NCBI RefSeq assembly: GCF_041929205.1
Contig: NZ_JBHFNT010000303.1
Length of the DNA: 64,000 nucleotides
DNA from: Floridaenema evergladense BLCC-F167
GTDB taxonomy: Bacteria > Cyanobacteriota > Cyanobacteriia > Cyanobacteriales > Aerosakkonemataceae
Reading direction: 5' to 3' (one strand)
Position 1 is the stretch's first letter; the number at the start of each line of letters is the position of its first letter. The translations under genes and the position numbers were made by a program. Below the pieces are notes generated by a model. It ran no database searches, was not told where the DNA came from, and was given only the letters and a program-made list of their open reading frames with translations. This document shows positions 1,037 to 54,796 of the stretch, one piece after another.

Positions 1037-2338
1037 CTATAGCATAGAAAGAGAGCGAATAACTTTTACTGCTTCACGAGTACTAATATCATTACGGCAT
1101 TCTTTAATTGGCTGGGAATTTCGTTCTCCATAGTAAGACTGGCGGACAAAACCTGCTCCTATAAAACGGTAGAAGGGGCCATTCCCCGCCCAGTCCATAT
1201 ACATATCCGCTTCTGGAAAATTTTGCCGCATTTCTGAATCTTGATAATGCCCGTAATACAGTGTCGTCTGACCAAAAAGCTGGGTATTCACTGTAATCTG
1301 ATTTTCTCGTTCAGGAATTCCCCCAATACCCCCGTATGTACCCTCAATTTTCTGCTCCAGCAAATAAGTTTTACGATATCTCTGTTTAGCCATTCGTCTA
1401 GCTTCTTTGGTTGTCCAAGGCTTAACAGGAAGCAAATCGGGTTGGACTTCTAATAAGTCTAAATAAGATCGATCGCCCGTCACTTCCCAGATTACCTGTG
1501 CTATAAATTTACAACAACTTAACGGTGCTTGCACTACCTGTTTTTCTGTGAACCGTACCACAATCCAACCCCACTCATTAAACAATTGATTGCGACGGAA
1601 ATCGCTATCTTCATCCCAGCAGTGTGTCGGTTTCAAAGACAAGCCAGCATAAGGCTCATCCACTTCCACATCAATACCAATACCTGAGATATTATGGACA
1701 ATAGTAAAGTCTGCCGAATAAGACTTCTTTGACATCGGAATCTTGAACTGAACACCCTGTACTGTGCTAGGAAAATAGCATTGTAAGTATCGCATAAATT
1801 CTTCTTCGCTCACCCCTTGCCGTGCTTGAGAATGACCGATTGGGTTAACTCGATTTGACATCAAATCTGATAGCAATTGACAACGTGATTTAAGATTAGT
1901 TAATAATTTTTGGGCTTTAATTTCAGGTGGATGCTCGGAAATTATCTGCTGTTTTTGATACGTTGCCAACTTTATTTGGTATTCGGACATTTGTTGTCGA
2001 TACTGCGAAAGCAGCTTAGTACGATAACTCAGTAAATATGTGTAAGCAGCTGCTATCAAACAAGAATAAGCACTGACAAGTAACAGCAATTCTATCCACG
2101 ACCAACCCCAAGAAACAGCCAGTAACGGAAGTGCGATCGCACCACCCAACCACAATAGCCAAATTAAACCAAACCATTCGACAGATGGCACTATTAATAA
2201 GTTCGGTAACTGTGGTTTTGTAACAGATGAAGAATTATCAGAAACAACTGTTATCTGATTGTCTCTAAACAAGTTTAAAGGATATTTACGGCAGAAATTT
2301 GTTACCGCTTCTGGATAAAACACCATCGGATAATTCAT
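1037..2338 (-). CDS. membrane-anchored protein with DUF559/Vsr-like PD-(D/E)xK nuclease-fold domain
   Basis: 433-aa ORF. The N-terminus has hydrophobic helices (WFGLIWLLWLGGAIALPLLAVSWGWSWIELLLLVSAY...). A coiled-coil linker follows. The central segment ADFTIVHNISGIGIDVEVDEPY...DSDFRRNQLFNEWGWIVVRFTEKQV fits the DUF559/Vsr pattern (DF...IEVDG..H....D..R...L...G..V.RF...V) as I remember it. A C-terminal domain of about 110 aa is unassigned. Confidence 0.45.
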   Translation of the reverse strand: MNYPMVFYPEAVTNFCRKYPLNLFRDNQITVVSDNSSSVTKPQLPNLLIVPSVEWFGLIWLLWLGGAIALPLLAVSWGWSWIELLLLVSAYSCLIAAAYTYLLSYRTKLLSQYRQQMSEYQIKLATYQKQQIISEHPPEIKAQKLLTNLKSRCQLLSDLMSNRVNPIGHSQARQGVSEEEFMRYLQCYFPSTVQGVQFKIPMSKKSYSADFTIVHNISGIGIDVEVDEPYAGLSLKPTHCWDEDSDFRRNQLFNEWGWIVVRFTEKQVVQAPLSCCKFIAQVIWEVTGDRSYLDLLEVQPDLLPVKPWTTKEARRMAKQRYRKTYLLEQKIEGTYGGIGGIPERENQITVNTQLFGQTTLYYGHYQDSEMRQNFPEADMYMDWAGNGPFYRFIGAGFVRQSYYGERNSQPIKECRNDISTREAVKVIRSLSML

Positions 2339-2569
2339 TTTCTTTTTTTTTTTGGTAGCGCTGTCGCGCTTTGTTGTAAAAAACTAGTAGAAATAAATGC
2401 CAAAACTTACTCAGAAAAAGCCTCAGTACCGAAAAGGCAATCGAGCCATCAACGAACCCTCTACAGTCAAACCAATTCCTATTGAACCTGATGAAGAAAC
2501 TGAAACAATCTTAGCTCGAATAGAAGCCGAACGCGATTACTATCACACTTGTACTAACAGTAAATACTG

Positions 2570-3208
2570 ATGAACTTAGCCACTCAATCTTTAGCTCATA
2601 CATCAATTACGGCAGCCCAACTTTGGCATCAATTAGAAATTGCCGAAACAACTGAAGAAATTGATCGCTTATTCCAATCAATTTGGCACAATCAAGAAAA
2701 ACAAGAAATTGCCATTGATGCTCATGCCGAACTTGCCAACCAAATTGATGCCGAAATTATAGCAATTAAAGCGAGAATGGAATTTCTAGTCCAATTGCAT
2801 CAAAGTGCGATCGATAAATTGGAAGGTTGGCGAGAGCGATTAGACCAAACTGTTATTTATTTTAATCAGATTGGAGCAATTACAGCCGAAATTGTTGGTA
2901 AACAGCATCGAATTACTGTCAAAGAAAACCCACCGACTTGTGAAGTATCTATCGACCCTTCTCAACTCCCAGACCAATATCGCCGTGTCGAAACTAAAAC
3001 CATAATTTCGGCTGACAAAAAGGCAATTACTGATGCTTGGAAGCAAGGAATACCTGTAGAAGGTACAAAAGTTTATCGTAGGCGTAAAGTAATTTATAGC
3101 TTACTACCAAGCAATTTACCTCAATACCAAGCTAGCACAATAGTCAATGTTGAACCATTAGAAAATCAGCCACAACCTACCAAAAAGCGACGTAAAAAAG
3201 CTGATTGA
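2570..3208 (+). CDS. Siphovirus Gp157-family protein
   Basis: 212 aa. An N-terminal coiled-coil is followed by ...HRITVKENPPTCEVSIDPSQLPDQYRRVETKTIISADKKAITDAWKQGIPVEGTKV. This matches the remembered Gp157 pattern (sv-K-PPsVeIiDe..IP.e...vpa.kqiDKkai...lKaG..vpGa.l). The gene ends in a basic KKRRKK tail. Confidence 0.5.
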   Translation: MNLATQSLAHTSITAAQLWHQLEIAETTEEIDRLFQSIWHNQEKQEIAIDAHAELANQIDAEIIAIKARMEFLVQLHQSAIDKLEGWRERLDQTVIYFNQIGAITAEIVGKQHRITVKENPPTCEVSIDPSQLPDQYRRVETKTIISADKKAITDAWKQGIPVEGTKVYRRRKVIYSLLPSNLPQYQASTIVNVEPLENQPQPTKKRRKKAD

Positions 3209-3553: not shown

Positions 3554-3637
3554 TATAAAAATCATTCAAGAGCAGGTTTTATTTGCTTAACCTTAATTGT
3601 CACGCTCAGAAAACTTGTAGTTCATTCATTTTCAATC

Positions 3638-6600
3638 ATGAAAAAGATAGCGTTTTCTACTGCAACTTATCACTCTACTGAATTAGCGAAAGGAGAGGGT
3701 CTTAAAATCCCTGTATTTGATATGTCGCTGACCGACGGTAAAACGAAAGGTCGCTATCAAGCTGAACCGGAAGTGTTGAGAAACTCAATGCTTGAACTGC
3801 TATTTGAACCATCTGAATTGAAATCGCTTGTGATTGTTAAACCCGACCCCGATGATAACAGTCACGACCCTCTCAAAAATATTGATTTTGGTGATGATAT
3901 TCCTAGAAGAGCTGCTTTCAGTTCTGGTAAAAATGTCTACTTTGCCGACCAACAACTTTCAACTAAACTATTAAGTATCTTTGCCACTCAACCCGACCAC
4001 GCCTGTCGTTATGGCTCTCTACTAGTCAGCAGTTGTACTCAAGGAGCGCAACTTTTAGATAGTTCCGCAGATGGTCAAGCATTGAAAGTTAAAATTGTTG
4101 ACTCTCAAAGCGATAATCCCAAAAAAAAAGCGTTAGCTAAAAAATGGCAAACTGGAGACTGTCATGGCAAAATCTCACCCGCTTTAGCTCAACAACTTGG
4201 AGGAATTCATAACCGACCTTTCCAATTTCGTATGGCATGGATGAAACAGTGGTCGCAGGAAGATTGTCCAACTCCAGAGATTAGCTTCTTAGCTAAAGGA
4301 ACCTTGCTACCTGATGCTCAATTAACTGATAATTCCGGCTATGATATCATTTTAGACCGCTCTTCTATCAAAGGAGTTGCTCGCGACCAACTTGCTTCTT
4401 TAATTCCTTGCGGTGATTACGAATTTCCCCAAATTGTTTTAGGAAATCGTGGTAATGCTAAAACAACCGAGTACGAAAATTCTTGGCAATTCTCGATTTG
4501 GTACTCAGAATCAGCCATTGAAGCTGACATCGTTCCTGCTACTAAAGCCGAGGCTCAAAAATTAGCAAGTTTACAAAATAATCGCATACAACTTGCTAAA
4601 TACTTAGTTGAACAACATGACAAAAAAGCAGCTTTCCGACAGACCACAGATGACACAGAAACCTCATTAAACGAACTAAGCGACGAGCAAACTAAACGCC
4701 ACGAATCTCGCCTTATCTCTATTCTCAGAAATGACAAATTGGGTCAATTACTAGACTTTCCCAAAGTTGTTGACTTCATGCAAGAACAACTTGCTAGAAA
4801 ATGGAAAGATTTAGCTATCAAAGGTGCCATTCATCATGGTTCCGCAATGGCTCAACCTGGTGAAGATTTGTTACCAGGAACGATTGTTGCACCTCATTTA
4901 CGACATGGAACGGAAGTTATCGTTACTCGCTACCCAATTGTTAGTAAAGACAACATTCGTCGCTACACAGTTAACAACAAACAAAAACCCGAACTCATGC
5001 AGTACAAAGGCTGTGTCTTCATTCGTCCCGACCAAGCTATGCAGCATCACCAATGCGATTTTGATGGCGACCAATTGGTAATTACACCTGCTTCCAGACT
5101 ACCTCACATTGCCAAAGAAACCCTTCATGCTAATGATGAAAATCAATACGAAGCTATCGAAAAACGCCCGAAAATTGATTACACTCAAGCTACTGACGAA
5201 GATGGTAAGCGTAAGTATACCAAACTCAGACAGATTGCTGTAGCGATCGCTAAAAACAAAATCGGCTGGGTAGCCACTTTGATTGGACGAGTACAATCTT
5301 CTGCACCAGAAGCAGGACAACCAGAGGCTTTATTCAATCAACGGAAACAGAAACTACTGGGTAAGTTATTCGATGCACTTCAAATCGAAGTCGATAGCCC
5401 TAAAAGTGCTACTAGGCTAGAAGACCACCATCCTAATCTACTAGAAACAGCTTCCAAGTGGTCTCAACAACATCCTTGCCACCTGTTCGATTTTAAAGAC
5501 GACCTCAGACTTTACAAAAGCGTACCGCTACCTACAGAAGATGGTACAGCAATTAGCGCGATCGCAAAAGTTGCTGTCAATCCAGCTTGGGAACCGACTC
5601 GTCTCAAGAGTCGCCATCGTGATGAATTTCGTTACCTTTTTAGTCCACCATCAGATTTAGACGAACGAGAAACTTGGGAGAAACATTACATAAATTGGGC
5701 GCAAGATGTCAAAGAACGTTATCGAGAAAGGATGGGCGAAATCTATGAGTTACATGGTGATAATCCTAGCAATTTAAAAGAGGCGGTTAGCAAATTGTAT
5801 GAGAGTTTGAGAAGCGATGTTGCAGAAACTTTTCCCAATCTAAGAGAACGCTTTTTAGCAGCCAGTGCGATGTGGCATTTAGAAACTACCAATCCTAATT
5901 TAGACGTTCCACGTAAAGCTGGTAAAGAACTTTCTCGCCAGCTTGAGATTGAATTTCATCTAGAATCGGATTACCAACAATTACACTCAGCATTACCTAA
6001 AGATACCTACATTCTTAGCGTTCCCTTTGAGGAATTTGTCAAAGACGATAAAGGTAAAATTGTCACAGACAAGCAACGAAAACCAGTCGTTCAAGATTTA
6101 GCTAAACAGTGGAAAGAGAGGCTAGATAGCAAAAACATTCAATACGAAGCTACATTGCATCCTAGTTTACCGATGGTCAACTTTGCTTTACTTGACCCTA
6201 GCGATAAGTTAATCGAAATTCTGGAAAAACGGTGTGGTAATAACATAAATGACATCGATAACTTGGACTTAACTTACCGTGATGGTTTAGGTCGGATTCA
6301 AGATATTAGTTCGCGGATTGTTGCACCTACCGAGTATACCTGGCTGGAGTCTCAACATCAAACACCTAAAGCAGCATTAGTGCTTAACTTGTTTACAGAT
6401 GAAATCTGTCAGCAATTACAAAACTTTCAATTTGACCGCGCCGAATTGATTGGACAGAAACACAATGATTGCAAAGATATTGATTTTAGCAATCGAGAAT
6501 GGAAAGGTCGAAAATTAACTTTTTCAGTTGGTTCCTTTAAGAGTTCTGACTTAAGGTATAACGGTAGTCCTATCGTCCTTCTTGATGGGAAACAATTAGC

Positions 6601-7090: not shown

Positions 7091-7122
7091 CCACAGCGAT
7101 AAAAAGCTTTCAAAACTAAACT

Positions 7123-7138
7123 CCCTCCAATTGGAGGG
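7123..7138. terminator. palindrome CCCTCCAATTGGAGGG (copy 2), likely intrinsic terminator
   Basis: It lies 33 bp after the stop of the 3638-7090 ORF. The GC stem is followed by the T-run GGGGGTTATTTTTCT. Confidence 0.5.
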
Positions 7139-7168
7139 GGTTATTTTTCTGGTGAGAAACTACCTAAT

Positions 7169-9268
7169 ATGAGGAAGTCTTTAAACAACATCTCAAATTT
7201 CATAGAAAATATCTGTTTCAATTTTTTTATTATGGTGACAAAAACAGCATCAAATCGAAACCGCAGCCAAGGTAATTACATTACCCCTCATACACCCGAA
7301 GGTACAAAGATTTTAAATTACCTGAGAAATCGTTGTGAAAAAGCTTTGAATTATTGTTTGTCAAATGGATTAAAAAGTGTAGACGATTTTGCTGATGCAG
7401 TTGAAGAACTAACTGAAGCTGATGGTAAACCAAGTATTAGTGTAGAAATCAAGCACAACGGAATCGTTCTTAGCTTAACTGACCGACCTGAGTACGGCTC
7501 TACTACAGGTAAATATATGATGGAACATTTGGGTGAATCAGACGATAACCGATTTACCAAAACCGGAATTGAAGCAATTCTTAATCCTCAGAAAAGCCGT
7601 CGTCAACAACCAGATGATTTATTAAATGGTTTAGATGACGATGAACCGCAACCTTTATCTAAATCTAAGCACAATAGTAAAGTTCATCATCGGGATATTC
7701 CAGACTTAGGTGAAGATGCACCATTGACTAAAACCCAAAGACAGAGGAAAGTTAACAGCAATGATTCAGAGGAATTAACGTTAGAAAAAGTTCAACCAAA
7801 ATCTAAAAGTAAGAGCCAATCTCGAACCGATGAATTAGATGACTTATTAGACGAATTAGATGGAAATGAACCATTATCTAAAACTAGAAATCAACCTCAA
7901 AAGTACGAAGTAAAATCAAATCAAACTAGCAGACAATCAGTTCCTCAATCATCAAATAACTTAGATATTGATACCATACTCGATGTTACTTCCCAGGTTA
8001 GTAGTCGAGCCGCCACTTCTGGAAGTGAAGTAGATGGTACAACTGTTGGTGGACTTAGCACTCAATTTGCAGTACTCACTACTTTGATTAGCAAAAAAGC
8101 AGCCGCACAAGTTTTTGAAGCAGCTAAAGCTATAGGAAGAGAACGTCAGGTTAGTAATATTATCAAAAGACTTAAAGCACAAAGTCAACGTGCTGACTCC
8201 TTATCTTCACGAGTTAAAAGCTTGACCCAAGAAGAATCAGATGAATCAGATGAATTAGAAACATCACCAGATGAACCCATAATAATTGAGGAATCCTCGT
8301 CAGAAGAAGAGGTAGAATCTGTATCAAATCCTGGGGTTATTTTGGCTGAAGCTGTTAACAAAATCAGCGATACAATCGATAAAACTTCCCTCACCTTAGC
8401 ACCAGATACTTTAGAGAAATCTGAACCTATTAAAATTGACACCAACGCTAGTTTTGATAAACAACTTGCACAAATTAATCAGGCTCTCGACCGACTAGAA
8501 AAGCGTCTCGATACTCTAGAAGCACGAATTGAAGCTTTAGAACAAAAACTTTCTACTACTGAAACTGAAATAAATGAACCAGTGGTTGAACCTGATAATG
8601 ATTTGAATTCAAACAACAGCAAACCGTCTCCATTAAAACCGATAAATATGGACAATTCCAGCAATAAAAAAGTGTCTGACTCATCACAAATCGCTTCCTT
8701 ATTAGCACAAGTTTATAACTTAGTTGAAGAAGAAGCAGTAGTAGCAGGTGAAACCCTAGAAAATGGAGTTGAATTAGGTGCTACCAAACTTTATCAGACT
8801 CGCCAGCGCAATTCTGTATCTGTGAAATTAGAAAATCAACAGGGTGAAGAGTTGTTCCGAGCAACTTGTTCCCAAGGTCAATGGAAAGTCATTAATGATT
8901 TCTTGAGCCAAGAAGACAAACAGGAAATCGCTCGCTTAGACATTTTACAACAAACAATTCATCAAGAAACATTAGCTGAAGTGTTAGGGAAAAGCGGTTT
9001 AACCCAAATGAACTTTACCGACTTGCAAGGTCGTCGTCTCGACTTTGAAATTGAGTTTAACGATAGGTCTAAGTCCTCTGCTTTTATCCAAGGCTTTAAC
9101 GAACACGATGAAGTAGTTTTTGACGCAACTATTGCTAAAGGTAAAGTTGAAGTACTTCAATGTGATATCCCTATTGAAGATGTAAAATATCTGCTTTCTC
9201 AAAAGCAACAGAATTCTCATCTCGCAGCACAAAAAAATCAAGAAAGTGAGTCCGAAATGGAAGCTTAA
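7169..9268 (+). CDS. acidic tandem-repeat / coiled-coil protein (699 aa)
   Basis: Long ORF, very D/E/S-rich. It has internal repeats (DDLLNGLDDDEPQPLSKSKHNSK / DELDDLLDELDGNEPLSKTRNQPQK). A heptad coiled coil (LEKRLDTLEARIEALEQKL) is present. The C-terminal ~180 aa are non-repetitive and look globular. Confidence 0.5.
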   Translation: MRKSLNNISNFIENICFNFFIMVTKTASNRNRSQGNYITPHTPEGTKILNYLRNRCEKALNYCLSNGLKSVDDFADAVEELTEADGKPSISVEIKHNGIVLSLTDRPEYGSTTGKYMMEHLGESDDNRFTKTGIEAILNPQKSRRQQPDDLLNGLDDDEPQPLSKSKHNSKVHHRDIPDLGEDAPLTKTQRQRKVNSNDSEELTLEKVQPKSKSKSQSRTDELDDLLDELDGNEPLSKTRNQPQKYEVKSNQTSRQSVPQSSNNLDIDTILDVTSQVSSRAATSGSEVDGTTVGGLSTQFAVLTTLISKKAAAQVFEAAKAIGRERQVSNIIKRLKAQSQRADSLSSRVKSLTQEESDESDELETSPDEPIIIEESSSEEEVESVSNPGVILAEAVNKISDTIDKTSLTLAPDTLEKSEPIKIDTNASFDKQLAQINQALDRLEKRLDTLEARIEALEQKLSTTETEINEPVVEPDNDLNSNNSKPSPLKPINMDNSSNKKVSDSSQIASLLAQVYNLVEEEAVVAGETLENGVELGATKLYQTRQRNSVSVKLENQQGEELFRATCSQGQWKVINDFLSQEDKQEIARLDILQQTIHQETLAEVLGKSGLTQMNFTDLQGRRLDFEIEFNDRSKSSAFIQGFNEHDEVVFDATIAKGKVEVLQCDIPIEDVKYLLSQKQQNSHLAAQKNQESESEMEA

Positions 9269-9276
9269 AATGTTTC

Positions 9277-9292
9277 CCCTCTAATTGGAGGG
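9277..9292. repeat. palindrome CCCTCTAATTGGAGGG (copy 3, one mismatch, stem extended by 1 bp)
   Basis: It starts 9 bp after the stop of the 7169-9268 ORF. Confidence 0.7.
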
Positions 9293-9390
9293 GGTCATTC
9301 TAACTATTTCAATTGACCGAGTATGGTGAAGTCACGAACACCAAGTTCCTTTTAAATTGACATCGAACCTACATAAATCAAGAAACTCTT

Positions 9391-10005
9391 ATGACAGTTT
9401 ACCAAAATTCTTGCCAGAGCCGACGCAAAAAGCTCTTATTCAATCGCTGGTTAACTCAACATCAAATCAACCTTGGCGATTTACTATTTATTGCTATTTG
9501 CATAGCAGTATTAATTTACTTTACCATCCGTCAACCTTTTTTCATCACAACATTAGGTTGCTCTAGCCTTGTATTTCTCAGCTTATGGCATATCGTTAGA
9601 GCGATTCCAATTGTAGAACAATATATCGGTAGCAAAATTCGCTTTTGGCACGTTACCACTGCTATTATTACTGCCACTGCATTATGTTCTGTACTTGATT
9701 CTCCAGCTAATGCCATCTTTCTTTCAGGTTTAGAAGTATTTATGCAACAACTAGCGCAAGGCGCGGCGGCGGCGGGAGGTCAACCGATTTCTACTGAAGT
9801 GATTACGTTGATTTTCAACTTAATTCGAGGCGCTTTTCTTTTGCTAGTAGCTGCTGCTTCATTGTTCGCTTATAACCAAGCACAGCAAGGGAATGATTGG
9901 CGACCAATTGTAACTCAAGTAGCACTGGCTTTTTCCATTGTAATTGCCATTGATGTTGTTACCTTTTTATTCGTTGGTAATGGTACTGGTGTTACTGGAG
10001 GCTAG
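9391..10005 (+). CDS. polytopic membrane protein, possible T4SS pilin (VirB2/TrbC-like) or VirB3-like
   Basis: 204 aa with about 4 hydrophobic helices and a central Ala/Gly-rich stretch. It lies immediately upstream of the VirB4-like ATPase. Confidence 0.3.
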   Translation: MTVYQNSCQSRRKKLLFNRWLTQHQINLGDLLFIAICIAVLIYFTIRQPFFITTLGCSSLVFLSLWHIVRAIPIVEQYIGSKIRFWHVTTAIITATALCSVLDSPANAIFLSGLEVFMQQLAQGAAAAGGQPISTEVITLIFNLIRGAFLLLVAAASLFAYNQAQQGNDWRPIVTQVALAFSIVIAIDVVTFLFVGNGTGVTGG

Positions 10006-14217: not shown

Positions 14218-14259
14218 GTTATTCAAAAATTCAAGTCAAAGTTAGTTAGCACTCAGAAA

Positions 14260-15345: not shown

Positions 15346-15374
15346 AACTACTTTAGTTCGCTGCATTTCTAGTT

Positions 15375-24659: not shown

Positions 24660-25787
24660 TTATTGTGCTGACAGCTTCGATTCAATTTCATTTAACTTGG
24701 AAGCAAGAGCAACTTTCAGTGCTTCCAACTCTTGTTGTTCCATATTATCAAGTGCTATTTCTCGCACTTGCCGAATCATACCTGTAGCACGAGATGGCGT
24801 TTGTTCTTTCGCTTGTTCTTTTAGATAACTGCTAATTTCTGATGAAACTAATGCCCTAGTTTTAGCCACAGATAATTTTTCTTGTAAAATTCGCTTAACT
24901 AACTTGGCTCTAACTTTTTTAGCCTCTGCTTCCTTTATTCCTAACGCTTTGGCATTACAACGCTGCACGGCAATTGCCTGTATTCCCCCCAGTCCTTGAG
25001 TACGAATAGCTTGCTTTAAATCTGCTGCTAATCCCAGCATAGGAAAAATATTGGTATTAATGGAAGCTGGGTTTAATTGCAAAGATAGTAATACGCTAAG
25101 TACGCTCTTTTCTGATGAGTTGAGTTCTAATTCGGCTAAAACTTCTTGTTGTGACTCTGGGCTAACTACTACTATTTCACTAATTTGATTAGTTTTTCCC
25201 TGCCTTTCTAGCCGTCGGACTGCGGTTCTTAAAATGCGAGGAATATCTTGCTCGTTTAAATTACTTGTCTGAGCTATTTCTTTGATTAGCGCTTCTGCCA
25301 TATCTAGCGGATTTAAGTTTTCCCGATGCAAGTTGGCGAGGAGAACGCGACGGTGCAACGCTTCGGGACAAGGGATAATTACTGCTTTTATCGTACCCCA
25401 CTGCAATTGCAAAGCCGCACGCCAACGTCGTTCTCCATCAAATAGTAGATACCGTCCATCTGGTTGTTCTATGAGGATAATTGGTTCCTGCTGTCCATCG
25501 CTAGCTAGGGAAACCATCATCCCGTTAATGCTTTCCGGTGAAAATGTCTGTCTTGGTTGGTCTGGGTTAGGATCTATCTGCTCCACTGATATGTCTATTA
25601 CACCCCCTGATGTGAGAGTTGAACGCAATTCTTGCACTTTGGTTTCAACTTGTTGAGAGTCAACGGAACGCAATTGCTCTATTTCGGCTTGCAGTTCGGT
25701 TATTTTAGTTTCTAAGGCGTGGACTTCTTGAGAGTATTCCGCACCAGAGAACAGATTGGATAGGTCTATTTGTGGTTTTTTACTCAT
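24660..25787 (-). CDS. parB: ParB/Spo0J-family partition protein
   Basis: ParB N-domain with ...EPIILIEQPDGRYLLFDGERRWRAALQL.... Its start overlaps the parA stop (ATGA). Confidence 0.8.
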   Translation of the reverse strand: MSKKPQIDLSNLFSGAEYSQEVHALETKITELQAEIEQLRSVDSQQVETKVQELRSTLTSGGVIDISVEQIDPNPDQPRQTFSPESINGMMVSLASDGQQEPIILIEQPDGRYLLFDGERRWRAALQLQWGTIKAVIIPCPEALHRRVLLANLHRENLNPLDMAEALIKEIAQTSNLNEQDIPRILRTAVRRLERQGKTNQISEIVVVSPESQQEVLAELELNSSEKSVLSVLLSLQLNPASINTNIFPMLGLAADLKQAIRTQGLGGIQAIAVQRCNAKALGIKEAEAKKVRAKLVKRILQEKLSVAKTRALVSSEISSYLKEQAKEQTPSRATGMIRQVREIALDNMEQQELEALKVALASKLNEIESKLSAQ

Positions 25788-26586
25788 GTTTAGTCTTCGA
25801 TTTCTTGAGCAGTTGAGTAATTTTGGTGACTATTGGGGTGAAGTCTTTACAGGCTGGATGTAAAGGACGATAAAGGTGAATTGGTAATCCTAGTGCAGAG
25901 GCATTCTTGAATTCTGATGAGAAACGGATTGGTTGGAAGCAGTGAATGGATAGTTTGGATAGTTGTGGTTCTAGGGAAGCTAAGATGTTGCGGTGAATGG
26001 CGATCGTCTTGTCGTATTGATTAGGTACAAATCCGAGGATCTGCGGTTCTGGTTTGAGTCTCAGGCGACGAGAGTTGTGGTAAAACCATTCTATGAGTTT
26101 GCCCGACCCATCTGCTGATTTTGGTTCTACTTGTATCGGAACTAGTAAATGTGTACAAGCGGAAAGGGCGATTAAAGGTAATGGCCCTAATGTGGCAGGA
26201 CAGTCGAAAATGAGAATGTCTTGAGGTAATGGATAATCTAATAGGCGATCGCCAAGTAAATAAGCACCCCGTTCGTGCAACACTAGTTCGTTAATAGTCT
26301 TTACTAATCCCATTTCTCCTTGTACGGCTACTACGTTTTTTACCTGGTCTTGCCATAAGGGTGTAGTAGGCCAGTTTCCCTGGAAATCGTCTCGCAATAC
26401 AGCGGCAATAGTTTGGTCGGGATGAGGTCGGGGTAATCCTCCCATTAGGGAACAGGAACCTTGTGGGTCTAAGTCAACGAGCGCTACACTGAACCCAGCA
26501 TTGCCTAATAAGTAAGCCAGATGCACGGCTAGGGTAGTTTTCCCACTGCCACCCGCGTTGGAAAGGAGCGCTAGTCTGATTGCCAT
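25780..26586 (-). CDS. parA: ParA/Soj-family partition ATPase
   Basis: Deviant Walker A region LALLSNAGGSGKTTLAVHLA...VDLDPQGS. The signature Lys is replaced (NAGG instead of KGG). Typical ParA length. Confidence 0.75.
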   Translation of the reverse strand: MAIRLALLSNAGGSGKTTLAVHLAYLLGNAGFSVALVDLDPQGSCSLMGGLPRPHPDQTIAAVLRDDFQGNWPTTPLWQDQVKNVVAVQGEMGLVKTINELVLHERGAYLLGDRLLDYPLPQDILIFDCPATLGPLPLIALSACTHLLVPIQVEPKSADGSGKLIEWFYHNSRRLRLKPEPQILGFVPNQYDKTIAIHRNILASLEPQLSKLSIHCFQPIRFSSEFKNASALGLPIHLYRPLHPACKDFTPIVTKITQLLKKSKTKHE

Positions 26587-26667
26587 ATACTAACACCACG
26601 ATTAACTTTGTTAGTTTAACATCAGCGTGGAATAATGTTATCCCACAATTAAGTTTTTGACCTTTTT

Positions 26668-27255
26668 TTAACCAGGAGAAACTATTGCTTTTACCTGAGC
26701 GACAGAATTTTGTTGTAATGCACGAACAGCGAGATCCTCACAAGCAGCTACACTTAATTGGGAAATCGCCTGTTTAATTACCGGGATAGCTGGAGGATTA
26801 ACACTCAACTTATCGATTCCCAAACCTAACAAAATTGCTGTAGCGGCAGGCTCGGCAGCTAGTTCACCACATAAACTCACCCAGATTCCCGCCCGATGAG
26901 CAGCTTGAACTGTTTGCTGCACCATGAGTAACACAGCTGGGTGCATCGCATCAGCCAAAGCAGCTACTTGTGGGTGAGTGCGATCGCTAGCCATCACATA
27001 CTGACTCAAATCATTAGTCCCAATACAAAAAAAGTCTACCTCCGCTGCTAAGCGCGAGGCAAGCACCACTGCTGAAGGTACTTCGATCATAATTCCCAAA
27101 GAAATCGTTCCCGCAACCGGAATATTCGGTTGACGCAGTTCCGACTGCACTTCCGAAAGGATTCCTTTGGCAGCTTTAACTTCCTCTAGAGGGGCAATTC
27201 CCATACTACGCCCATTCATGTTCACTCGTCTGCACAAATCTGCTATTTGTGACAA
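26668..27255 (-). pseudogene. C-terminal fragment of a PEP-utilizing enzyme (PtsI-like TIM-barrel domain), N-terminally truncated
   Basis: GIMIEVPSAVVLASRLAAEVDFFCIGTNDLSQYVMASDR...CGELAAEPAATAILLGLGID matches the Enzyme I C-terminal domain (FFSIGTNDLTQY). At 195 aa it is far shorter than a full ~570-aa enzyme, and no upstream domains are present. Confidence 0.5.
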
Positions 27256-27268
27256 ATCATATCCTTGC

Positions 27269-28725
27269 TCAGATGCGGCACCACAAATTTTCTCTGCCAG
27301 TAGCTAATTGACCTTCAATTCTTGCCGCTTCTGCTTTTGCTCTCGCTGCTGCGGTAGCTTGACCTGTAGTTTCGATCGCAGAGTTTTCCGCTTGCAATTC
27401 TAACAGATTTCTCCGTTCCGCTTCGGCTGCACCTTTATCAACAATTGCCTGTCTTTCTAACCTAGATTTTGCTTCTTGTTCGATCCGTTCGGCATCATGT
27501 CTAGCAGCAGCTTCTTGGGCATCAGTAGTAATTTGAATCGCAATTTGTACCGACTTTTGCAAACTTTTCAAAGTTTCTTCATCTACTGGTTCTACTGATT
27601 GAATATCAACGTTAAAAATTACCAAATTATTGGTTCTAAAACGGAATTCTTCCCGCACTCGACCTTCGGTATCTGTACCAAATACAGCAGTACGAATAAT
27701 CCGAGCAGAATTGCGGTGAAACTCGTCAAATTTTACACTGGCTACTGCACCCCGAACGCGAGATGCGATCGCTTTACAAGCAGTATCTACAAAATCAGGT
27801 ACTTGGAAAAGTTTTGCCGCTGCTTGTTCATCATCTCGATTAACATCAAAATACCAATTATAAGACAAACGTAACTGAAGTCTGGCATGATCTGATGTTT
27901 CAACTGTGAACAAATCAGTCATAAAATCTGGGCCTAATAATAAGGCCAAAGACTTGATTATATGAGGTCTTTTTGGTACGCTACCGGATAAACTCAACAC
28001 CGTAAAAGCTTCATCTGGCCCCAGCATTACTAAGTCTGGGCCAAATACAGTTCTGGCGGTTCTTTCCTTATAATCATGTATTTGCACGGCGGCATTTTGG
28101 GGAACATGAAAAACCACAGCCCTTGTTTTATTTCGTTCGCTTCTTGTCTCAGATTTCGAGGGAATTTCTGATATTTGATTTTGCCGATCGCCACCTTTGT
28201 TAGTATGATGTCGCCCCCTTTCCGAAACCGGATCGTTTTTAATTGCTAATAGTTCTTCCACAATTGGTGGCAATTCTTTTTCCCACAGTTCTTCATAAGG
28301 ACTGAGCATATAAGCTTGCGGGCCACTAACAACTTTCACTTCACCTGTTTGAATATCTCTAATATAAATTCCTTCATTCTTATCCAGAGGAATTGCTTGA
28401 CGTTTTTCAACTACTTCTACTTGCACAGGAGGGATATAATCTCTTGGCCCTGCAATCATCCACATATCCCCTGGTTGACGTTGAATTAATATCGAGGTGG
28501 TACAATAATCATCGGTTCCGGTTTTAATATTAACCGTTCGTGATCGCGCAAAGTAATAGTTTGTGGGCCAACTTCCAGTCTAGTCACCCCTGTATTGTTA
28601 TCTAAAACGTGAATAAATTGCTGAGGTTTTAAGCGAATTATGCCGCTAGCAATTCCTGGTAATTCGGATTTATTTTCTGTAGTGCGATCGCTTATATTCA
28701 TAGCCATCTTTTCCAAGTAATTCAA
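27269..28725 (-). pseudogene. major vault protein (MVP)-like gene, fragmented and truncated
   Basis: Fragment 28486-28725 ([29 protein letters not shown]...IIVPPRY) resembles MVP repeat 1. A TAA stop and +1 frameshift follow. Fragment 27269-28465 aligns by recollection with MVP repeat 8, the shoulder and the start of the cap-helix ([22 protein letters not shown]..., [48 protein letters not shown]). Repeats 2-7 and the distal cap-helix/C-terminus are absent. Confidence 0.55.
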
Positions 28726-29136
28726 TACTTTTACCTGGGATAAACGCGATTATTTCCTCTGGCAGCTTTCTCTTTCTAAAAAAGCGAAAATAACGTTATC
28801 CTTGCTAATCCTGCTCAATTCTAACCGCCAGATTTCAGCAATAGCTAACTTGTAATACAACTACAATTTTCTATGAAATTCTTAACGGTCTAAATCTACC
28901 AAAACTACCGCATAATTTTTTCTAACTTTTAGTTATTTCATCAATCCCTAATCTTTTTAATTGGCTGGGCTTTTCCATCAATAAATCTGCTTATCTAATA
29001 TGGTTTCGATTTCTGCTGGACTCATTCTATTTCTTCTTTCGGCATTGACTACATTTTGCTAACTATTCGTCAAGATTTTGAGCAAATTTTGCAGCTAATA
29101 AATTAGGAGATGAAGCTTAATTGATGAATTCAGAGA

Positions 29137-32100
29137 TTAAGATTGCAAATCAAACAGATTGCCCTGTCCACAGTTACCATTGATAATCTCTAAGAGTGCA
29201 GTACGTTCGGTTTCATTAAAATGCCATCGCCATACCCAAAAAGCGCGAATTTGCCCGTACTGATTAGCGATCGCTTCCCAATCCGCCTGACACTGTATTA
29301 CTGCCAAAAGTTTCGCTATTTGACGTGGTTCCTTTGTTTGATTGTACCCCCTAGTACCTGGATACTCGGCTGGCAATTGGATTAACGTATCATCTGAAAG
29401 TTTCAGAGTGATAGCACGAGGCGTATTGTCCTCTAACACCAAACCAGATTCCCCAGAGGCAGGTGAAACTGGTGAGACTGGTGAAACCAGATGAAACTGA
29501 GGTAAAACTGAAGCGGTTTCAAGTTCAAACCCTTGATTAGTAAGAGTTTCAGTCGGTGAAACCATTGAAACCAAATCTTGAGAACTAGAGACTAAATCTG
29601 TTTTTTGAGTTTCTTGGTTTCCTTCACAGTTATGAGAGGCTGAAACAGTTGGTATTAGGTGATTAGAGCCGGAAACTGAATTTAGTTTCTCATCAGTTTC
29701 ACTATCAACGACAACTTCAGCGTCAGGAGGCATATCGTCACCACCTGGATGATTTGGGCGATCGCCAGGGCCATTGTCGGGAGGATTGTCAGGTGGATCT
29801 GTGTCATCGGAGTCAATACCAAACAACTCAATGGGAATTAACCACGCCTTTTTCATTTTCTTTTGCGGTGGGTTAGGTTTAAGCAACCTCCCTTCAGAAT
29901 CGTACCCTGCTGTTAACAAAGCTCGCTTATAGGCTAAAACTTCATCTCGCGAAGCATCAAAACGGACAGAGCGATCGACTATGCCACCTATCTTCAATAA
30001 AGTAGCTTTGAGGGATTTTTGATTGTAAGTGGCAGGTTTAAAAGCTTTTTGGACTTCACTCCAAACACTCGCCGGATGAATAGCTACCCACTGTACACCG
30101 TCGTCATCAGTCAATAAACGCTTATCCCAACTACCAACTTCGTCTTTCCCTTCCAACGCCTGAATGCAGCGAACAAAATCAGTTAATGGGTTGCCATTAT
30201 TCTCCTCATCATTCTCGATCGGTGTTAAGTTATCCAAAGCCCAAATGCGAGGTTGTTCGTTTCCTCCTACCAGTTCAATTACCTTTTCGGCATAATAGAC
30301 AACCAGTGCCAAATTCCAAGCAATACGTTCGTGTGCTAAAGGTAATCGGGCTAAAAATTCACTGCAAATAGCATTAATTTCCTGGGGATGATAGCCAATC
30401 CCAATTAATGTGGAAAAAGAACCGGAAGCTAATTTCATCGCCTCCTTCAGCTGAGGAATCGCTACAGTGTCACCACCTGGGTAAAAAGGAACTCTGGCAA
30501 ACCGAGTGAAAGCCGCATCGTGTTCGCCGCCTAGTATATGGTTACTGGTAAAGCCTAAAGGACTGCGTGGTGTTTGCCGATTTCCCCTGACTACACGCGG
30601 TTTGGCGTTGTACATCGCCTTGCAAAATTCGTCCAACTCTCTAGTACTGTCCCCGTTGCGTGGAGGATCGTCCCAGATTACGGGTAAACTACCTGTTTTA
30701 CTCAGGTGTTCGTAGACAGCAGAGATGGTAACTTTGCTAATCATTCCCAAAGATGCCCAGTTGGTGCCAACTAGAGAAAGTGCTGCTTCTAAGGCAACGG
30801 TTTTTCCCGTACCAATAGCACCGTAGGCATTAAGAATCGGGAATCGTCCTTCTTTATCTAAGATTGTTTGAAAATGAAGCCCAGCAATTACCCAACCACA
30901 ACAAAGTAAAAATTGATTGATATTATCTGCACCAAAAACTATTCTGGCAGCTGCAATTAAACGTTTTAAACCTTCAATTCCCGTATCTTCTGCCACTATT
31001 GGACAGGGAATAAAGTCCTCTTTTCCTAATGCTGGGTCAAATACGGTAGAACTATCGCTTTCAGTTGTTGGTTGACCATCTGATGTGAACTGAGCATTAT
31101 TTAATACCCATAAGCCGTTTGATTGTTGTCCGTAGCGATCGATCGACCGAAAAATTTGCCCCTCACGATGACGGCGATACACTGCTTGTTTGGCAGCAAT
31201 TAAAGCATTAAGTTCCCATTTAGTTAAACTAACCACCACCACAAATCCTAAAGCTTTGGAAAGGGCAGTGGTGAATTTATCGGGTGATGTCAAGTCAGTC
31301 GCTTTGATCAGTACTCGATACTGTGTTTGTTCCCATTCTGGTTTCAGTTGCAGTATGAAACCGCCCCCTTCTTCCGAGGTGAGTTCCCGTTCAATGGCGA
31401 AATCAAAATTACAGCGAGGTTGCCAAGTAATCTCGCCATCCTTGTTTGTTTTCCAGTAACCGATGGTTCCCAAGTAGCTTTGCGGTTCGTTCCAATCAAC
31501 AGTTTCTGCTTGTTCAAACTGCTTTTCCCAAAGGTTGATAGAGGTACATTTACCAATTACTTCATGGATAAAGTTATTAGCACCGTGATTTTGGATGTAA
31601 TCATCGGCTCCTTTATCACCGTTGGGATAGCTCTCATCACATTGCCACAAACCAGTTGCGTTGTACAAGGGGACTTGAAAGGCTTTTAGCTGGTGCGCGA
31701 GTTTGCGCTGTGCCCAGCGAACACCAGGTTTGGTAGCAGCATCGGCATCAAAGCAGAAGATGAAACCGAAACCTGCTTTAGCGAAGTTCTCTAGTCCGGG
31801 TACCAAGTAGCGTTTCTTTTGTGGGTCTTCCTTGCTACTGGTTAATCCCATCTCGACACCGAGTAAGACAATCGTAGCAATGCCAGCAGCATTAATTGCC
31901 ATCCCGGTGAACACGCCTTCTGTAATCACTAAACAGGGATGACCGTCTATTTTATAAGCTTTTTGTTTGAGTGCTTCTAGGTCATTCCAGAACCGGGGGT
32001 CATCTGGGTGATGTAGGAGAATCGCATCGTAGTCACCCAATGGTGAACGATACTTGGGGGCTTTCTTTGTTTTATCGTCTCGCCAGGGTTTATCGGGTAA

Positions 32101-32304
32101 AAATTGAATCTGAATCCCGATTCCTTCAAGTAGTATGCCATCTGATTTGGCGGTGTAACCCAGTCGGTATGAGGCTTCTTGAGCAGAAACGGAACGACAG
32201 TTGGCTAGTGCCCAATTTAGCGGTAGTCCCCGTCGATAGATTTCCTGGATATGACGGGGATTAAGGGTTTCACAAGTGCTTTTGTTCTCAGATTCCATGT
32301 TCAC
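29137..32304 (-). CDS. plasmid-type replication primase-helicase (TOPRIM-like DUF3854 N-domain + SF3/D5-like P-loop NTPase)
   Basis: 1055 aa. The N-terminal region (..FIFCFDADAATKPG..) resembles the TOPRIM-like DUF3854 domain. The central part has Walker A LNAYGAIGTGKTVALEAAL and Walker B SLPVIWDDPP. A Pro-rich low-complexity linker (PPDNPPDNGPGDRPNHPGGDD) precedes a C-terminal domain. An iteron-like region lies directly upstream. Confidence 0.6.
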   Translation of the reverse strand: MNMESENKSTCETLNPRHIQEIYRRGLPLNWALANCRSVSAQEASYRLGYTAKSDGILLEGIGIQIQFLPDKPWRDDKTKKAPKYRSPLGDYDAILLHHPDDPRFWNDLEALKQKAYKIDGHPCLVITEGVFTGMAINAAGIATIVLLGVEMGLTSSKEDPQKKRYLVPGLENFAKAGFGFIFCFDADAATKPGVRWAQRKLAHQLKAFQVPLYNATGLWQCDESYPNGDKGADDYIQNHGANNFIHEVIGKCTSINLWEKQFEQAETVDWNEPQSYLGTIGYWKTNKDGEITWQPRCNFDFAIERELTSEEGGGFILQLKPEWEQTQYRVLIKATDLTSPDKFTTALSKALGFVVVVSLTKWELNALIAAKQAVYRRHREGQIFRSIDRYGQQSNGLWVLNNAQFTSDGQPTTESDSSTVFDPALGKEDFIPCPIVAEDTGIEGLKRLIAAARIVFGADNINQFLLCCGWVIAGLHFQTILDKEGRFPILNAYGAIGTGKTVALEAALSLVGTNWASLGMISKVTISAVYEHLSKTGSLPVIWDDPPRNGDSTRELDEFCKAMYNAKPRVVRGNRQTPRSPLGFTSNHILGGEHDAAFTRFARVPFYPGGDTVAIPQLKEAMKLASGSFSTLIGIGYHPQEINAICSEFLARLPLAHERIAWNLALVVYYAEKVIELVGGNEQPRIWALDNLTPIENDEENNGNPLTDFVRCIQALEGKDEVGSWDKRLLTDDDGVQWVAIHPASVWSEVQKAFKPATYNQKSLKATLLKIGGIVDRSVRFDASRDEVLAYKRALLTAGYDSEGRLLKPNPPQKKMKKAWLIPIELFGIDSDDTDPPDNPPDNGPGDRPNHPGGDDMPPDAEVVVDSETDEKLNSVSGSNHLIPTVSASHNCEGNQETQKTDLVSSSQDLVSMVSPTETLTNQGFELETASVLPQFHLVSPVSPVSPASGESGLVLEDNTPRAITLKLSDDTLIQLPAEYPGTRGYNQTKEPRQIAKLLAVIQCQADWEAIANQYGQIRAFWVWRWHFNETERTALLEIINGNCGQGNLFDLQS

Positions 32305-33327
32305 ACCTTATAAGCTTGTTGGTGCTGGTGGTAATCCAGAACTGATTTTGGAGAGATGAGTAATCTAGGTACTCAATAAACAGTGAGGTCTTATGTGGCA
32401 TAGTCTTTAATTTTGTGCGCCATGGCGCACAAATTCAAGGATGCAGAATTTTTTAGCTCTTTTAGATTAGCAGCCCCCTGTTCACAGACATTTGACAGTC
32501 CTTGGATCATAATGATCATAATGATCAGATTTGTGAACAAAAATGGAACCCTTACTGAATAAAGGTTTAAGACGACGAAAAAATATTTTTGGGTAAGCCG
32601 AGGGGTATTTCTGGGTAAGCCGAGGGGTATTTTTCTGTGTACAGGCTGAATATTAGTATTGGCAAGGGTTTGGGACTTTTGGTTAACTCAAGGGGTATTA
32701 TTGTTCACTAACTCTTAATGAAGCTAAAATGCAAGTGGATAAGGCTTTTCAGATGTTCTAGTTCAGATTGAGTTTCCTGTTCACAAGGAGTCATTAGATA
32801 CGCCTCATTCAGTGCAAAGAGTACCTGATTCATACAAGTCTCATCTCATTGCTCGCTATGTTTATCCAACTAACGCAGTACTGCCTAAGTTCAGTCTCGC
32901 AAAACAGTCTTGAGGAACTGAAGCAGCGAAGCTCACTACTTCAGTTCACCCGCGACAGATTGCCAATCTGGAACTGATTTTAACTGCTTCAGGTCAGGTT
33001 CAGTCCTTTCGATATAAGCAAGTAAGATTGTCGGAAGCTGGATGCGATGAAAGTTGCACATCCAGATTTAACAGAGAGGGGCGAGGGGTATTGACTGCTC
33101 CTCAATTCCTGTCTCAAATTACTTAAACTTGCTCATTCATTCAGCTAGAACCAGCAAATGAGCAAGTTTAACCTAAACACGAAACTAAGAAAGCGGTAAA
33201 AACAAATGATTAATTCATTAGCTTTTTAAATAGCTCAATAACTGAATTAAATTATTATTTAAAGTTTTTAAAGGTCGGGATTAAATATGTTAGAATTAAC
33301 CAATATACATATTAAGTAATTGCTTAA
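32305..33327. promoter_or_regulatory. non-coding region with iteron-like direct repeats and palindromes; putative replication origin / rep promoter
   Basis: About 1 kb has no convincing ORF. It contains the 22-bp palindrome TTTGTGCGCCATGGCGCACAAA (32412-32433). GATCATAAT is tandemly repeated 2.6 times (32505-32528), flanked by inverted TGTTCACA/TGTGAACA. The 20-mer GGGTAAGCCGAGGGGTATTT is repeated in tandem (32591-32610, 32613-32632). GAGGGGTATT cores recur at 32691 and 33082. CCTGTTCACA recurs at 32776. Confidence 0.35.
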
Positions 33328-34548
33328 ATGCTGAAAAGTTTTAAGACAAAGCTAAACCTAAATAACCAGCAAAGAACATTAGCTTCTCAACACGCAGGGG
33401 TTTCTCGTCACGCTTGGAATTGGGGTTTAAATGTTTGTCTTACAGCAAAAGATGCTCAGGAAAAGCGACCAAGTGCTATTGACTTACATAAGCGATTAGT
33501 AGCAGAAGTTAAATCAGTTAATCCTTGGTATTATCAAGTTTCCAAATGCGCTCCTCAACAAGCGTTAAGATATTTAGATGAAGCATTTAAACGTTGTTTT
33601 AAAGTTCCGGGGACTCGTCAACCTAAGTTTAAAAAGAAAAATATTAAAGACAGTTTCTATCTAGAAGGAAATATTAAGATTTCTGGCAATCAGATCAAAA
33701 TCCCTAAGTTTGGCTGGGTTAAATGTTATGAAATCCTCCCAACAGTTCAACCTAAAAATGTCACCATTTCCAAAAAAGCAAATGATTGGTATATCAGCTT
33801 TAGATACGAGTTAGAGCCATCGCCAATTCGCCATACTAGAAAGCGGATCGGAGTTGACGTAGGAATTAATGCTCTGGCTACTTGTTCGGATGGTACAGTT
33901 TTTCCTAACCGGAAAGCTTATCGAAAGGCTAAAAGAAAGTTAGCTCATCTGCAACGGTCTTTCTGTCGTAAGCAACTCGGTTCAAAAAACCGCGCCAAAG
34001 CAAATCTAAAGGTAGCTAGATTGCATAGAAAAGTTGCTAACATCAGACAAGACGCATTGCACAAACTAACAACTTGGCTAGCTAAAAACCACAGCGAAAT
34101 TGTGATAGAGAATTTAAACGTCTCTGGAATGCTAAGAAATCATAGATTGGCTAGTGCTCTTGCTGATTGTGGATTCTATGAATTTAAAAGGCAACTTGAA
34201 TATAAAGCTAGTTGGTATGGTTCAACAGTAATTAGAGTTGACAGGTTTTACCCAAGCTCGCAACTTTGTAGTTGTTGTCATCATCGTCAAAAAATGCCAC
34301 TCTCAAAAAGAATTTTTAAGTGTGGCAATTGTGGGATGGAGTTAGATAGAGATTTGAATGCCAGTATTAATTTAGAAAATTGGCACGCCATTATTGAATT
34401 TCCAACAACCGTTAGCTCAACGGGGATTGCTTGTGGAGAGTTAAGTAAACTTAATGGTTCAACTGTTAAGGATTCGATGAAGCAAGAAGAAAACGTTAAA
34501 TTTACTTGGTTTGCAGCTTCGTTCTGTGACCAAAGTAAGTTTGAGTAA
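33328..34548 (+). CDS. tnpB: IS200/IS605-family accessory protein TnpB (OrfB, RuvC-like + zinc finger)
   Basis: 406 aa. Typical TnpB N-terminus ...NQQRTLASQHAGVSRHAWNWGL.... The RuvC-like core is IGVDVGINALATCSDG. The C-terminal zinc finger is CSCCHHRQKMPLSKRIFKCGNCGMELDRDLNASINL. No tnpA is adjacent. Confidence 0.85.
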   Translation: MLKSFKTKLNLNNQQRTLASQHAGVSRHAWNWGLNVCLTAKDAQEKRPSAIDLHKRLVAEVKSVNPWYYQVSKCAPQQALRYLDEAFKRCFKVPGTRQPKFKKKNIKDSFYLEGNIKISGNQIKIPKFGWVKCYEILPTVQPKNVTISKKANDWYISFRYELEPSPIRHTRKRIGVDVGINALATCSDGTVFPNRKAYRKAKRKLAHLQRSFCRKQLGSKNRAKANLKVARLHRKVANIRQDALHKLTTWLAKNHSEIVIENLNVSGMLRNHRLASALADCGFYEFKRQLEYKASWYGSTVIRVDRFYPSSQLCSCCHHRQKMPLSKRIFKCGNCGMELDRDLNASINLENWHAIIEFPTTVSSTGIACGELSKLNGSTVKDSMKQEENVKFTWFAASFCDQSKFE

Positions 34549-54647: not shown

Positions 54648-54720
54648 GTTTGATTAGCTCAGTGGTAGAGCATCCGAACGCATCGGTAGGACGTAGGTTC
54701 AATCCCTACATCAAACACCA
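54648..54720 (+). tRNA. tRNA-like gene (probable degenerate/pseudo-tRNA; anticodon arm does not fold canonically)
   Basis: Perfect 7-bp acceptor (GTTTGAT/ATCAAAC). D-arm GCTCAGTGGTAGAGC. T-arm GTAGGTTCAATCCCTAC. Encoded ACCA 3' end. The anticodon region ATCCGAACGCATCGGTA gives only 3-4 bp of stem and no U33. Confidence 0.45.
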
Positions 54721-54796
54721 GGAAGTTAGCTCAATGGGTAGAGCGATCGACTGAAAATTCGATTTGTCGCAGGTTCAAATCCTGTACTTTCAACCA
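54721..54796 (+). tRNA. tRNA-like gene, anticodon loop CTGAAAAT (GAA, Phe-like) but 8-nt loop and imperfect acceptor
   Basis: D-arm GCTCAATGGGTAGAGC. Anticodon stem ATCGA/TCGAT with 8-nt loop CTGAAAAT. T-arm GCAGGTTCAAATCCTGT. The acceptor GGAAGTT/ACTTTCA pairs at only 5 of 7 positions. The 3' end is ACCA. Confidence 0.45.

Follow-up and report, generated by a model that had tools for sequence, protein, structure and literature searches.

Remnant of a major vault protein gene in a plasmid-like element of the cyanobacterium Floridanema evergladense

Results

Two adjacent reading frames hold the remains of one MVP gene

This study concerns a 64-kb stretch of DNA, referred to below as the window, out of a 65,185-bp contig (NZ_JBHFNT010000303.1, assembly GCF_041929205.1) of Floridanema evergladense BLCC-F167, and in particular two adjacent open reading frames (ORFs) on its minus strand that hold the remains of a major vault protein (MVP) gene. 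The long ORF (27269..28465) encodes 398 aa and the short ORF (28486..28725) encodes 79 aa when read from a TTG codon, while alignment with the MVP of '[Phormidium]' sp. LEGE 05292 points to an ATG at 28707 as its likely true start, which gives 73 aa. By phmmer against PDB chains, the short ORF aligns with about residues 6-57 of rat and human MVP (E 1e-11 to 1e-12), and the long ORF aligns with MVP residues 357-739 over 386 residues at about 60% identity (E 1e-139). A Pfam search, in which the vault repeat domains PF01505, PF17794, PF17795 and PF17796 were considered, finds Vault_3 (E 4e-30) and Vault_4 (E 4e-18) in the long ORF, together with an MVP_shoulder domain (PF11978) that spans residues 178-295 of the 398 aa and covers the full profile (1-118) with 180.7 bits (E 1.1e-53). 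Band_7 reaches 21.8 bits (E 2e-4) in the same ORF, under its gathering cut-off of 23.6 bits. The results reveal that both ORFs are the remnant of a cyanobacterial MVP gene, a family already known, and that this remnant resembles MVP more closely than it does generic SPFH/Band 7 proteins. They bear out a preliminary description of the window, made from the sequence alone, which had likened both ORFs to metazoan MVP, assigned the upstream 79-aa fragment to the first MVP repeat and quoted peptides that are indeed encoded where it placed them. The two errors that it had foreseen can also be set aside: an ordinary SPFH/flotillin gene is at odds with the Band_7 and MVP_shoulder scores, and a similarity confined to the shoulder is at odds with an alignment that also takes in repeats 1, 8 and 9, the end of repeat 7 and the early cap-helix. 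The long ORF does run through the shoulder into the cap-helix as it had described, but starts in the last strands of repeat 7 rather than at repeat 8.

Of the nine repeats, no more than 1, 8, 9 and the end of 7 are kept, and the complete MVP architecture of nine repeats, shoulder, full cap-helix and cap-ring in about 860-900 aa is absent from the window. The best listed PDB and database matches of the remnant are MVPs or cyanobacterial homologues, some labelled 'colicin uptake protein', and identity to the closest cyanobacterial proteins is 71-97%, ahead of eukaryotes at no more than 63%. The NCBI protein exactly equal to the 396-aa version of the long ORF is named 'hypothetical protein [Floridanema evergladense]'. 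The remnant contains two perfect highly iterated palindrome (HIP1) octamers (27765 and 28684), and its G+C content is 41% against 40% for the window.

Three deletions separate the window from an intact orthologue

The closest MVP locus is that of LEGE 05292 (locus L001), a strain that a recent preprint places with Floridanema (PMC13252402). This locus is syntenic with the window and carries an intact MVP of 896 aa, and it served as the reference for all lesions, which were placed from blastn high-scoring segment pairs and from alignment of each junction to both flanks (Table 1). By tblastn, the window pieces correspond to residues 1-72 (frame -2) and 374-769 (frame -1) of 895 in the LEGE 05292 MVP, with 97% identity over residues 1-72, and piece 2 matches 3600..4787 of the LEGE 05292 locus gap-free at 96.6% nucleotide identity. 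Piece 2 has no internal stop or frameshift, and the start of its annotated ORF is an internal ATG (28465 or 28459). Together the remaining pieces make up 52% of the protein, so that in comparison with intact orthologues the gene has the disrupted frame and the loss of essential parts that mark a pseudogene. Deletion A alone takes out the repeats, displaces the downstream frame by -1/+2 and makes the TAA of the stub. Most of the 36 other orthologous loci break at window position 28487, and a few do so nearby, at a distance of some bases to tens of bases; in the loci that align on both sides, the break points fall on the same two window positions or miss them by a few bases. The window therefore represents the derived state.

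These alignments also settle what the preliminary description had said of the damage. It had suggested looking for an intact orthologue in related cyanobacteria and aligning the nucleotide sequences; the first is the 896-aa protein of LEGE 05292, and the second located the deletion and frameshift at junction A. Its view of a decayed MVP copy in a cyanobacterial mobile element agrees with the intact orthologue at the syntenic site of this sister strain. Repeats 2-7 are missing as it had stated, although the junction alignment gives 301 codons plus 1 nt instead of about 330 aa; the TAA and the frame change are present, but both arise from the one 904-bp deletion rather than as a separate lesion, and the displacement is -1/+2 instead of +1. 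The distal cap that it had found missing corresponds to the last 127 MVP codons, removed by the 890-bp deletion B.

The damage reaches past the interval first described. In LEGE 05292, a complete dihydroxyacetone kinase set of the phosphotransferase system type (DhaK, DhaL and DhaM) lies 3' of MVP (5212-9451, plus strand), with a Dak1 domain at 5212..6288 (E 4e-128), a DhaL of the Dak2 type and an 830-aa DhaM in which EIIA-Man, HPr and Enzyme I are fused. The window has in this place a chimeric ORF of 195 aa (26668..27255), in which a fragment of dhaK runs in frame into the final 178 codons of dhaM. Its PEP-utilizers_C match covers only profile positions 144-291 of 293 (E 1e-52). Smaller differences between the two loci amount to 130 bp upstream of MVP and 96 bp between dhaM and parA. 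Over 11,351 bp that include all junctions, a Logan assembly of the BLCC-F167 sequencing run SRR30638121 agrees with the window at 100% identity, and an assembler-specific artefact is therefore unlikely.

Programmed frameshifting that would join both ORFs was considered and rejected, as it needs a -1/+2 shift at CGA-TAT-TAA, where there is no slippery heptamer, and the joined product would still be without 301 residues. A promoter and terminator scan of 26500..29300 stayed at chance level (6 promoter-like matches against 6.6 expected).

Table 1. Features of the MVP remnant and its surroundings in the window
Feature	Position	Strand	Basis or remark
MVP remnant piece 1: N-terminal extension and repeat 1	28486..28707	-	codons 1-73 of the 896-codon orthologue
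Stop codon TAA of piece 1	28488..28486	-	made by the deletion junction
Piece 1 with upstream DNA	28889..28487	-	blastn, LEGE 05292 locus 2295..2698
MVP remnant piece 2: end of repeat 7, repeats 8 and 9, shoulder, first ~90 residues of the cap-helix coiled coil	27303..28489	-	orthologue codons 374-769
Deletion A, 904 bp (3x301+1)	28487..28489	-	TTA microhomology; loses MVP codons about 74-374 (repeats 2 to most of 7)
Deletion B, 890 bp	27302	-	T homology; loses last 127 MVP codons, MVP-dhaK spacer and first 466 nt of dhaK
Deletion C, ~3.13 kb	27188..27197	-	TTGC microhomology; loses 3' part of dhaK, all of dhaL and ~655 first dhaM codons
Out-of-frame tail past junction B	27269..27302	-	MVP frame runs 11 codons in dhaK-derived DNA to TGA
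dhaK internal fragment, 111 bp (Dak1-domain dihydroxyacetone kinase subunit)	27192..27302	-	blastn, LEGE 05292 locus 5678..5788, 94.6% identity
dhaM 3' remnant (EIIA-HPr-EI fusion)	26668..27197	-	blastn, LEGE 05292 locus 8922..9455; only the end of PEP-utilizers_C
DUF3854 primase-like gene, intact, 1055 aa, upstream of the remnant	29137..32304	-	Pfam DUF3854; syntenic with LEGE 05292
parA, intact, downstream of the remnant	25780..26586	-	Logan gene call, CbiA/ParA domain
parB, intact, downstream of the remnant	24660..25787	-	Logan gene call, ParB_N domain

The deletions look recent

Over the surviving MVP codons the window and LEGE 05292 differ by a synonymous divergence (dS) of 0.12, and the ratio of non-synonymous to synonymous divergence (dN/dS) is 0.09, equal to that of the intact parA and parB. 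At this value, the relaxed selection expected of a pseudogene is not seen on the remaining codons. The substitutions were polarised with five outgroups, where a single outgroup had left 12 changes unassigned. About 10 synonymous (codon 38, ACT to ACA, counted among them) and 3 non-synonymous changes fall on the window branch and 24 and 6, respectively, on the LEGE 05292 branch, with 4 changes unresolved. There are about 3.4 non-synonymous sites for each synonymous site, and neutrality would yield the opposite ratio. Two of the three non-synonymous changes of the window lie in a poorly conserved linker and the third is V to I. No secondary stop or frameshift occurs in the 1188 bp. The deletions look recent because the changes on the window branch are mostly synonymous and further lesions of these kinds are absent. 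If the remnant is neutral, a rough Poisson bound would place the deletions within roughly the final 15-28% of the branch that leads to the window alone.

Intact orthologues are not rare in filamentous cyanobacteria

A scan of species-representative genomes gave 37 MVP loci, nearly all from filamentous cyanobacteria. At 29 of them, including LEGE 05292, tblastn returns one uninterrupted full-length in-frame match, with ORFs of about 860-930 aa, and pairwise dN/dS between MVP orthologues is 0.06-0.09. The family is thus normally under purifying selection. The best 120 listed protein clusters are all at least 73% identical to the LEGE 05292 MVP, and most of the named ones are called 'colicin uptake protein'. 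The preliminary description had taken bacterial vault homologues to be rare, which these numbers do not support for filamentous cyanobacteria. HIP1 density inside the orthologues is broadly similar to that of the flanking DNA, and the orthologues that have no HIP1, namely those of Oscillatoria PCC 10802, O. princeps, Oscillatoria sp. Prado101 and a Thiotrichaceae metagenome-assembled genome (MAG), lie in loci that have none either. This pattern supports a long residence of the MVP family in cyanobacteria, as had been proposed from the octamers in the remnant; the proposal holds for the family and not for the broken state.

Conserved neighbours were sought by clustering 545 flanking ORFs from 35 loci, and no family occurred in more than nine loci or at a fixed position. 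The linkage to dhaKLM is thus confined to the Floridanema lineage and offers no hint of function. The full LEGE 05292 MVP found no match by tblastn among 72,556 PLSDB plasmids. As for a second, intact copy in F. evergladense, no protein named for Floridanema occurs among the 120 best full-length matches, many of which are nameless, and two nameless Logan matches at 91% identity come from other runs, SRR5823597 and SRR14765265.

Some loci deserve separate mention. The Thiotrichaceae MAG (L030, JAABRD010000041.1, 8771-11518), which has a gammaproteobacterial assignment and no HIP1 in the gene or its flanks, carries an intact MVP that is 71% identical to the remnant; this is either a transfer outside cyanobacteria or a binning error, and the loci assigned to 'Actinomycetota' (L003) and 'Anaerolineales' (L034) pose the same alternative. 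In Hormoscilla sp. GM7CHS1pb (L008, 8859-11509), the reading frame of the MVP is broken into two near residue 350-380. Apart from the remnant, this is the sole disrupted copy among the loci, and the break, on a 3.1-Mb contig (tig00001523), may be a sequencing indel and not a real frameshift.

The surrounding element resembles a plasmid

The window contains partition and replication-type genes that are typical of cyanobacterial plasmids. Relatives of its DUF3854 protein occur on 38 PLSDB plasmids, almost all cyanobacterial, and a Nostoc plasmid has a gene similar to its RarA fusion. Other products of the window include a TrbI-like protein and a TnpB/IS605 OrfB, together with a helicase of the PIF1/RecD-like type and a paralogue of DnaN. 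The backbone genes are intact, with dN/dS of 0.09-0.16, including 0.09 for parA and parB against LEGE 05292. This gene content, which is that of a cyanobacterial plasmid or conjugative element, suggests that the element is plasmid-like. No near-identical plasmid was found in PLSDB, where a megablast search with window positions 20000-44000 gave only short matches of about 75% identity.

The gene order in LEGE 05292 is a DUF3854 gene, MVP, dhaK, dhaL, dhaM, parA, a 626-bp segment, parB and a rarA-fusion gene. The 626-bp segment (10429-11054 of that locus) holds a truncated RRXRR/HNH endonuclease ORF of 120 aa; in the window, the parA stop and the parB start overlap (ATGAGTAA) and the segment is absent, so that it looks like an insertion in LEGE 05292.

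Several further features of the window were recorded. Two abutting tRNA genes lie at 54648-54796 on the plus strand, the first of which is tRNA-Ala(CGC). The second (54720..54796) scores 55.8 bits in Rfam and, read by eye, has an atcga/tcgat anticodon stem with an 8-nt loop (CUGAAAAU), and ARAGORN gives its anticodon as the four bases 'gaaa'; a Phe-like tRNA whose loop is expanded is a possible identity. As a possible frameshift helper for the two MVP ORFs this tRNA was rejected, given that it would produce a +1 shift and that a UUUC-type target is absent at the junction. An Rfam match to group II intron domain V/VI (33033-33112, plus strand; 41.6 bits at a gathering score of 40) is found about 200 bp upstream of a TnpB/IS605 OrfB-type ORF (33328-34548, plus strand) with OrfB_IS605 and Cas12f1-like TNB domains. 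Near the TrbI-like gene, large plus-strand ORFs at 3638-7090, 10102-13338 and 13363-16088 have no Pfam match at E<=1e-4; they comprise products of 1150 aa, 1078 aa and three of 237-361 aa, and may belong to an uncharacterised cyanobacterial conjugation or transfer module.

Discussion

Our analysis makes it very probable that the interval is an inactivated cyanobacterial MVP gene and that it lies in the cargo portion of a plasmid-like F. evergladense element. The ancestral gene order is likely to have been DUF3854 gene, MVP, dhaK, dhaL, dhaM, parA, parB and rarA-fusion, as in LEGE 05292. In the lineage of the window, three deletions would then have stripped most of the cargo, from MVP to dhaKLM, and spared the replication and partition backbone, which would have remained under selection. 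Deletion A would have excised repeats 2-7 and brought in an immediate TAA, leaving a 73-codon stub and a presumably promoterless 3' piece, deletion B would have taken the distal cap-helix, the cap-ring and the 5' end of dhaK, and deletion C the rest of the dha operon. Illegitimate, microhomology-mediated recombination is the likely cause of these deletions, because the junctions share only 1-4 nt of homology. Repeats 1-2 make the waist contact in the rat vault structure. The remnant pieces should not assemble into the 78-mer shell of a vault, because the cap-ring is lost together with repeats 2-7 and the distal half of the cap-helix.

Several points weigh against this interpretation. The 396 surviving codons show no relaxed constraint, and the low dN/dS and the clean frame fit a protein in use as well as they fit a recent pseudogene. 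Three deletions within 7 kb in a short time are somewhat surprising, and one complex rearrangement may have occurred instead. A second intact MVP copy could lie elsewhere in the genome, as our analysis covers one contig. In addition, the Logan assembly may share its reads with the deposited assembly, in which case both could carry a library artefact or show one allele, whether the minor or the major one, of a polyploid cell.

The strongest competing explanation is that the 396/398-aa ORF is a functional truncated protein, with repeats 8-9, the SPFH-like shoulder and half of the coiled coil, which would be translated by re-initiation about 20 nt past the stop of the stub and kept by selection, for example for a ring-forming or scaffold role like that of SPFH proteins. 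The mostly synonymous changes on the window branch and the lack of further lesions in 1188 bp fit this explanation, but a short time since the deletion accounts for the substitution pattern equally well. Past the TAA there is indeed an ATG at a distance of 20 nt, with a purine-rich AGGGGA in front of it; in the intact orthologue, however, these surroundings are ordinary internal coding sequence, and no start signal has evolved. The shoulder is known to have an SPFH-like fold (PMC3762200 citing Tanaka 2009), and NCBI and Logan both call the ORF a gene. Nevertheless, the ORF terminates in 11 out-of-frame dhaK codons, the short architecture is found in no other genome among the 37 loci, and the dha operon has suffered likewise, a sign that a whole cargo block was lost and not that one gene was tailored. 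We therefore regard a functional truncation as unlikely.

Less likely still is that the deletions are assembly or library artefacts, or are carried by only some of the plasmid copies, and that the organism has an intact MVP-dhaKLM block. Our analysis rests on assembled sequence, and the clustering of three deletions in one operon would fit such an origin; moreover, cyanobacteria are polyploid and their plasmid populations can be heterogeneous. Against it stand the Logan assembly, identical over 11.35 kb with all junctions, the homology of 1-4 nt at the junctions, which is far too little for an assembler to collapse repeats, and the MVP repeats themselves, which are too unlike in DNA to collapse and give single unambiguous blastn segment pairs with LEGE 05292. 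An ordinary SPFH, flotillin or TolA-like gene, or contaminating eukaryotic DNA, could be suspected from the NCBI family name 'colicin uptake protein', the weak Band_7 match and the 59-63% identity to metazoan MVPs, but is refuted by the Pfam scores, in which MVP_shoulder, Vault_3 and Vault_4 are far above their cut-offs, by the match to repeat 1, by nearest relatives that are cyanobacterial, by the location amid cyanobacterial plasmid genes in synteny with LEGE 05292, and by the HIP1 octamers inside the gene and a G+C content like that of the window.

Inactivation thus remains our preferred interpretation. The intact allele of LEGE 05292 and the deleted allele of BLCC-F167 record a dated loss of MVP in two closely related strains, which form a natural pair that could be compared in search of a cyanobacterial vault phenotype. 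The scattered distribution of MVP could be explained in part by a plasmid location. We speculate further that the truncated product may be a new, translated and retained 'mini-MVP', which the nearly exclusive synonymous change on its branch would permit, and, more broadly, that MVP may ride as cargo of conjugative-type plasmids. We hold this reading as a whole to be improbable; if it were true, plasmid cargo would be a vehicle for the patchy spread of MVP in filamentous cyanobacteria and perhaps to the Thiotrichaceae genome.

Cyanobacterial proteins about 54-60% identical to animal MVP have been reported since 2013 by Daly et al., from Lyngbya/Moorena, Oscillatoria acuminata and Microcoleus PCC 7113, with a discussion of eukaryote-to-cyanobacterium transfer (PMC3762200). 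The opposite direction has been argued in a 2019 preprint by Sokolskyi (bioRxiv 10.1101/872010), and a 2023 preprint again lists cyanobacterial MVPs. To this debate on vault origin, from eukaryotes to cyanobacteria or the reverse, the remnant adds little. The papers considered here demonstrate vault particles for no cyanobacterial MVP, and for one such protein they offer in-silico docking only (PMC3762200).

With eukaryotic MVP (rat and human, PDB 4V60 and 4HL8), the remnant shares the order of repeats, shoulder and cap-helix, but it is without repeats 2-7, the distal cap-helix and the cap-ring. None of the eukaryotic vault partners vPARP, TEP1 and vault RNA turned up near the remnant, although no search was aimed at them. 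The likeness to other protein families is partial: the MVP shoulder has an SPFH-like fold, as in stomatin, flotillin and HflK/C (PMC3762200), and the MVP cap-helix is an Ala/Glu-rich coiled coil like that of TolA, from which the database name 'colicin uptake protein' derives (PMC3762200), whereas neither SPFH nor TolA proteins have anything that corresponds to the vault repeats. The closest known systems are the cyanobacterial MVPs of about 860-930 aa (F4Y3B4 of Moorena/Lyngbya, K9TKX8 of Oscillatoria acuminata and K9WB38 of Allocoleopsis/Microcoleus PCC 7113), which have the same Pfam domains, come likewise from filamentous hosts and are 71-97% identical to the remnant over the retained parts. 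Unlike these proteins, the remnant has lost codons about 74-374 and 770-896 and is frame-shifted. It also lies in a plasmid-like backbone beside dhaKLM, whereas several other MVP loci are on multi-megabase, apparently chromosomal contigs. This plasmid-type context in the Floridanema lineage is the one feature that we did not find described before, and our data give a first indication of it.

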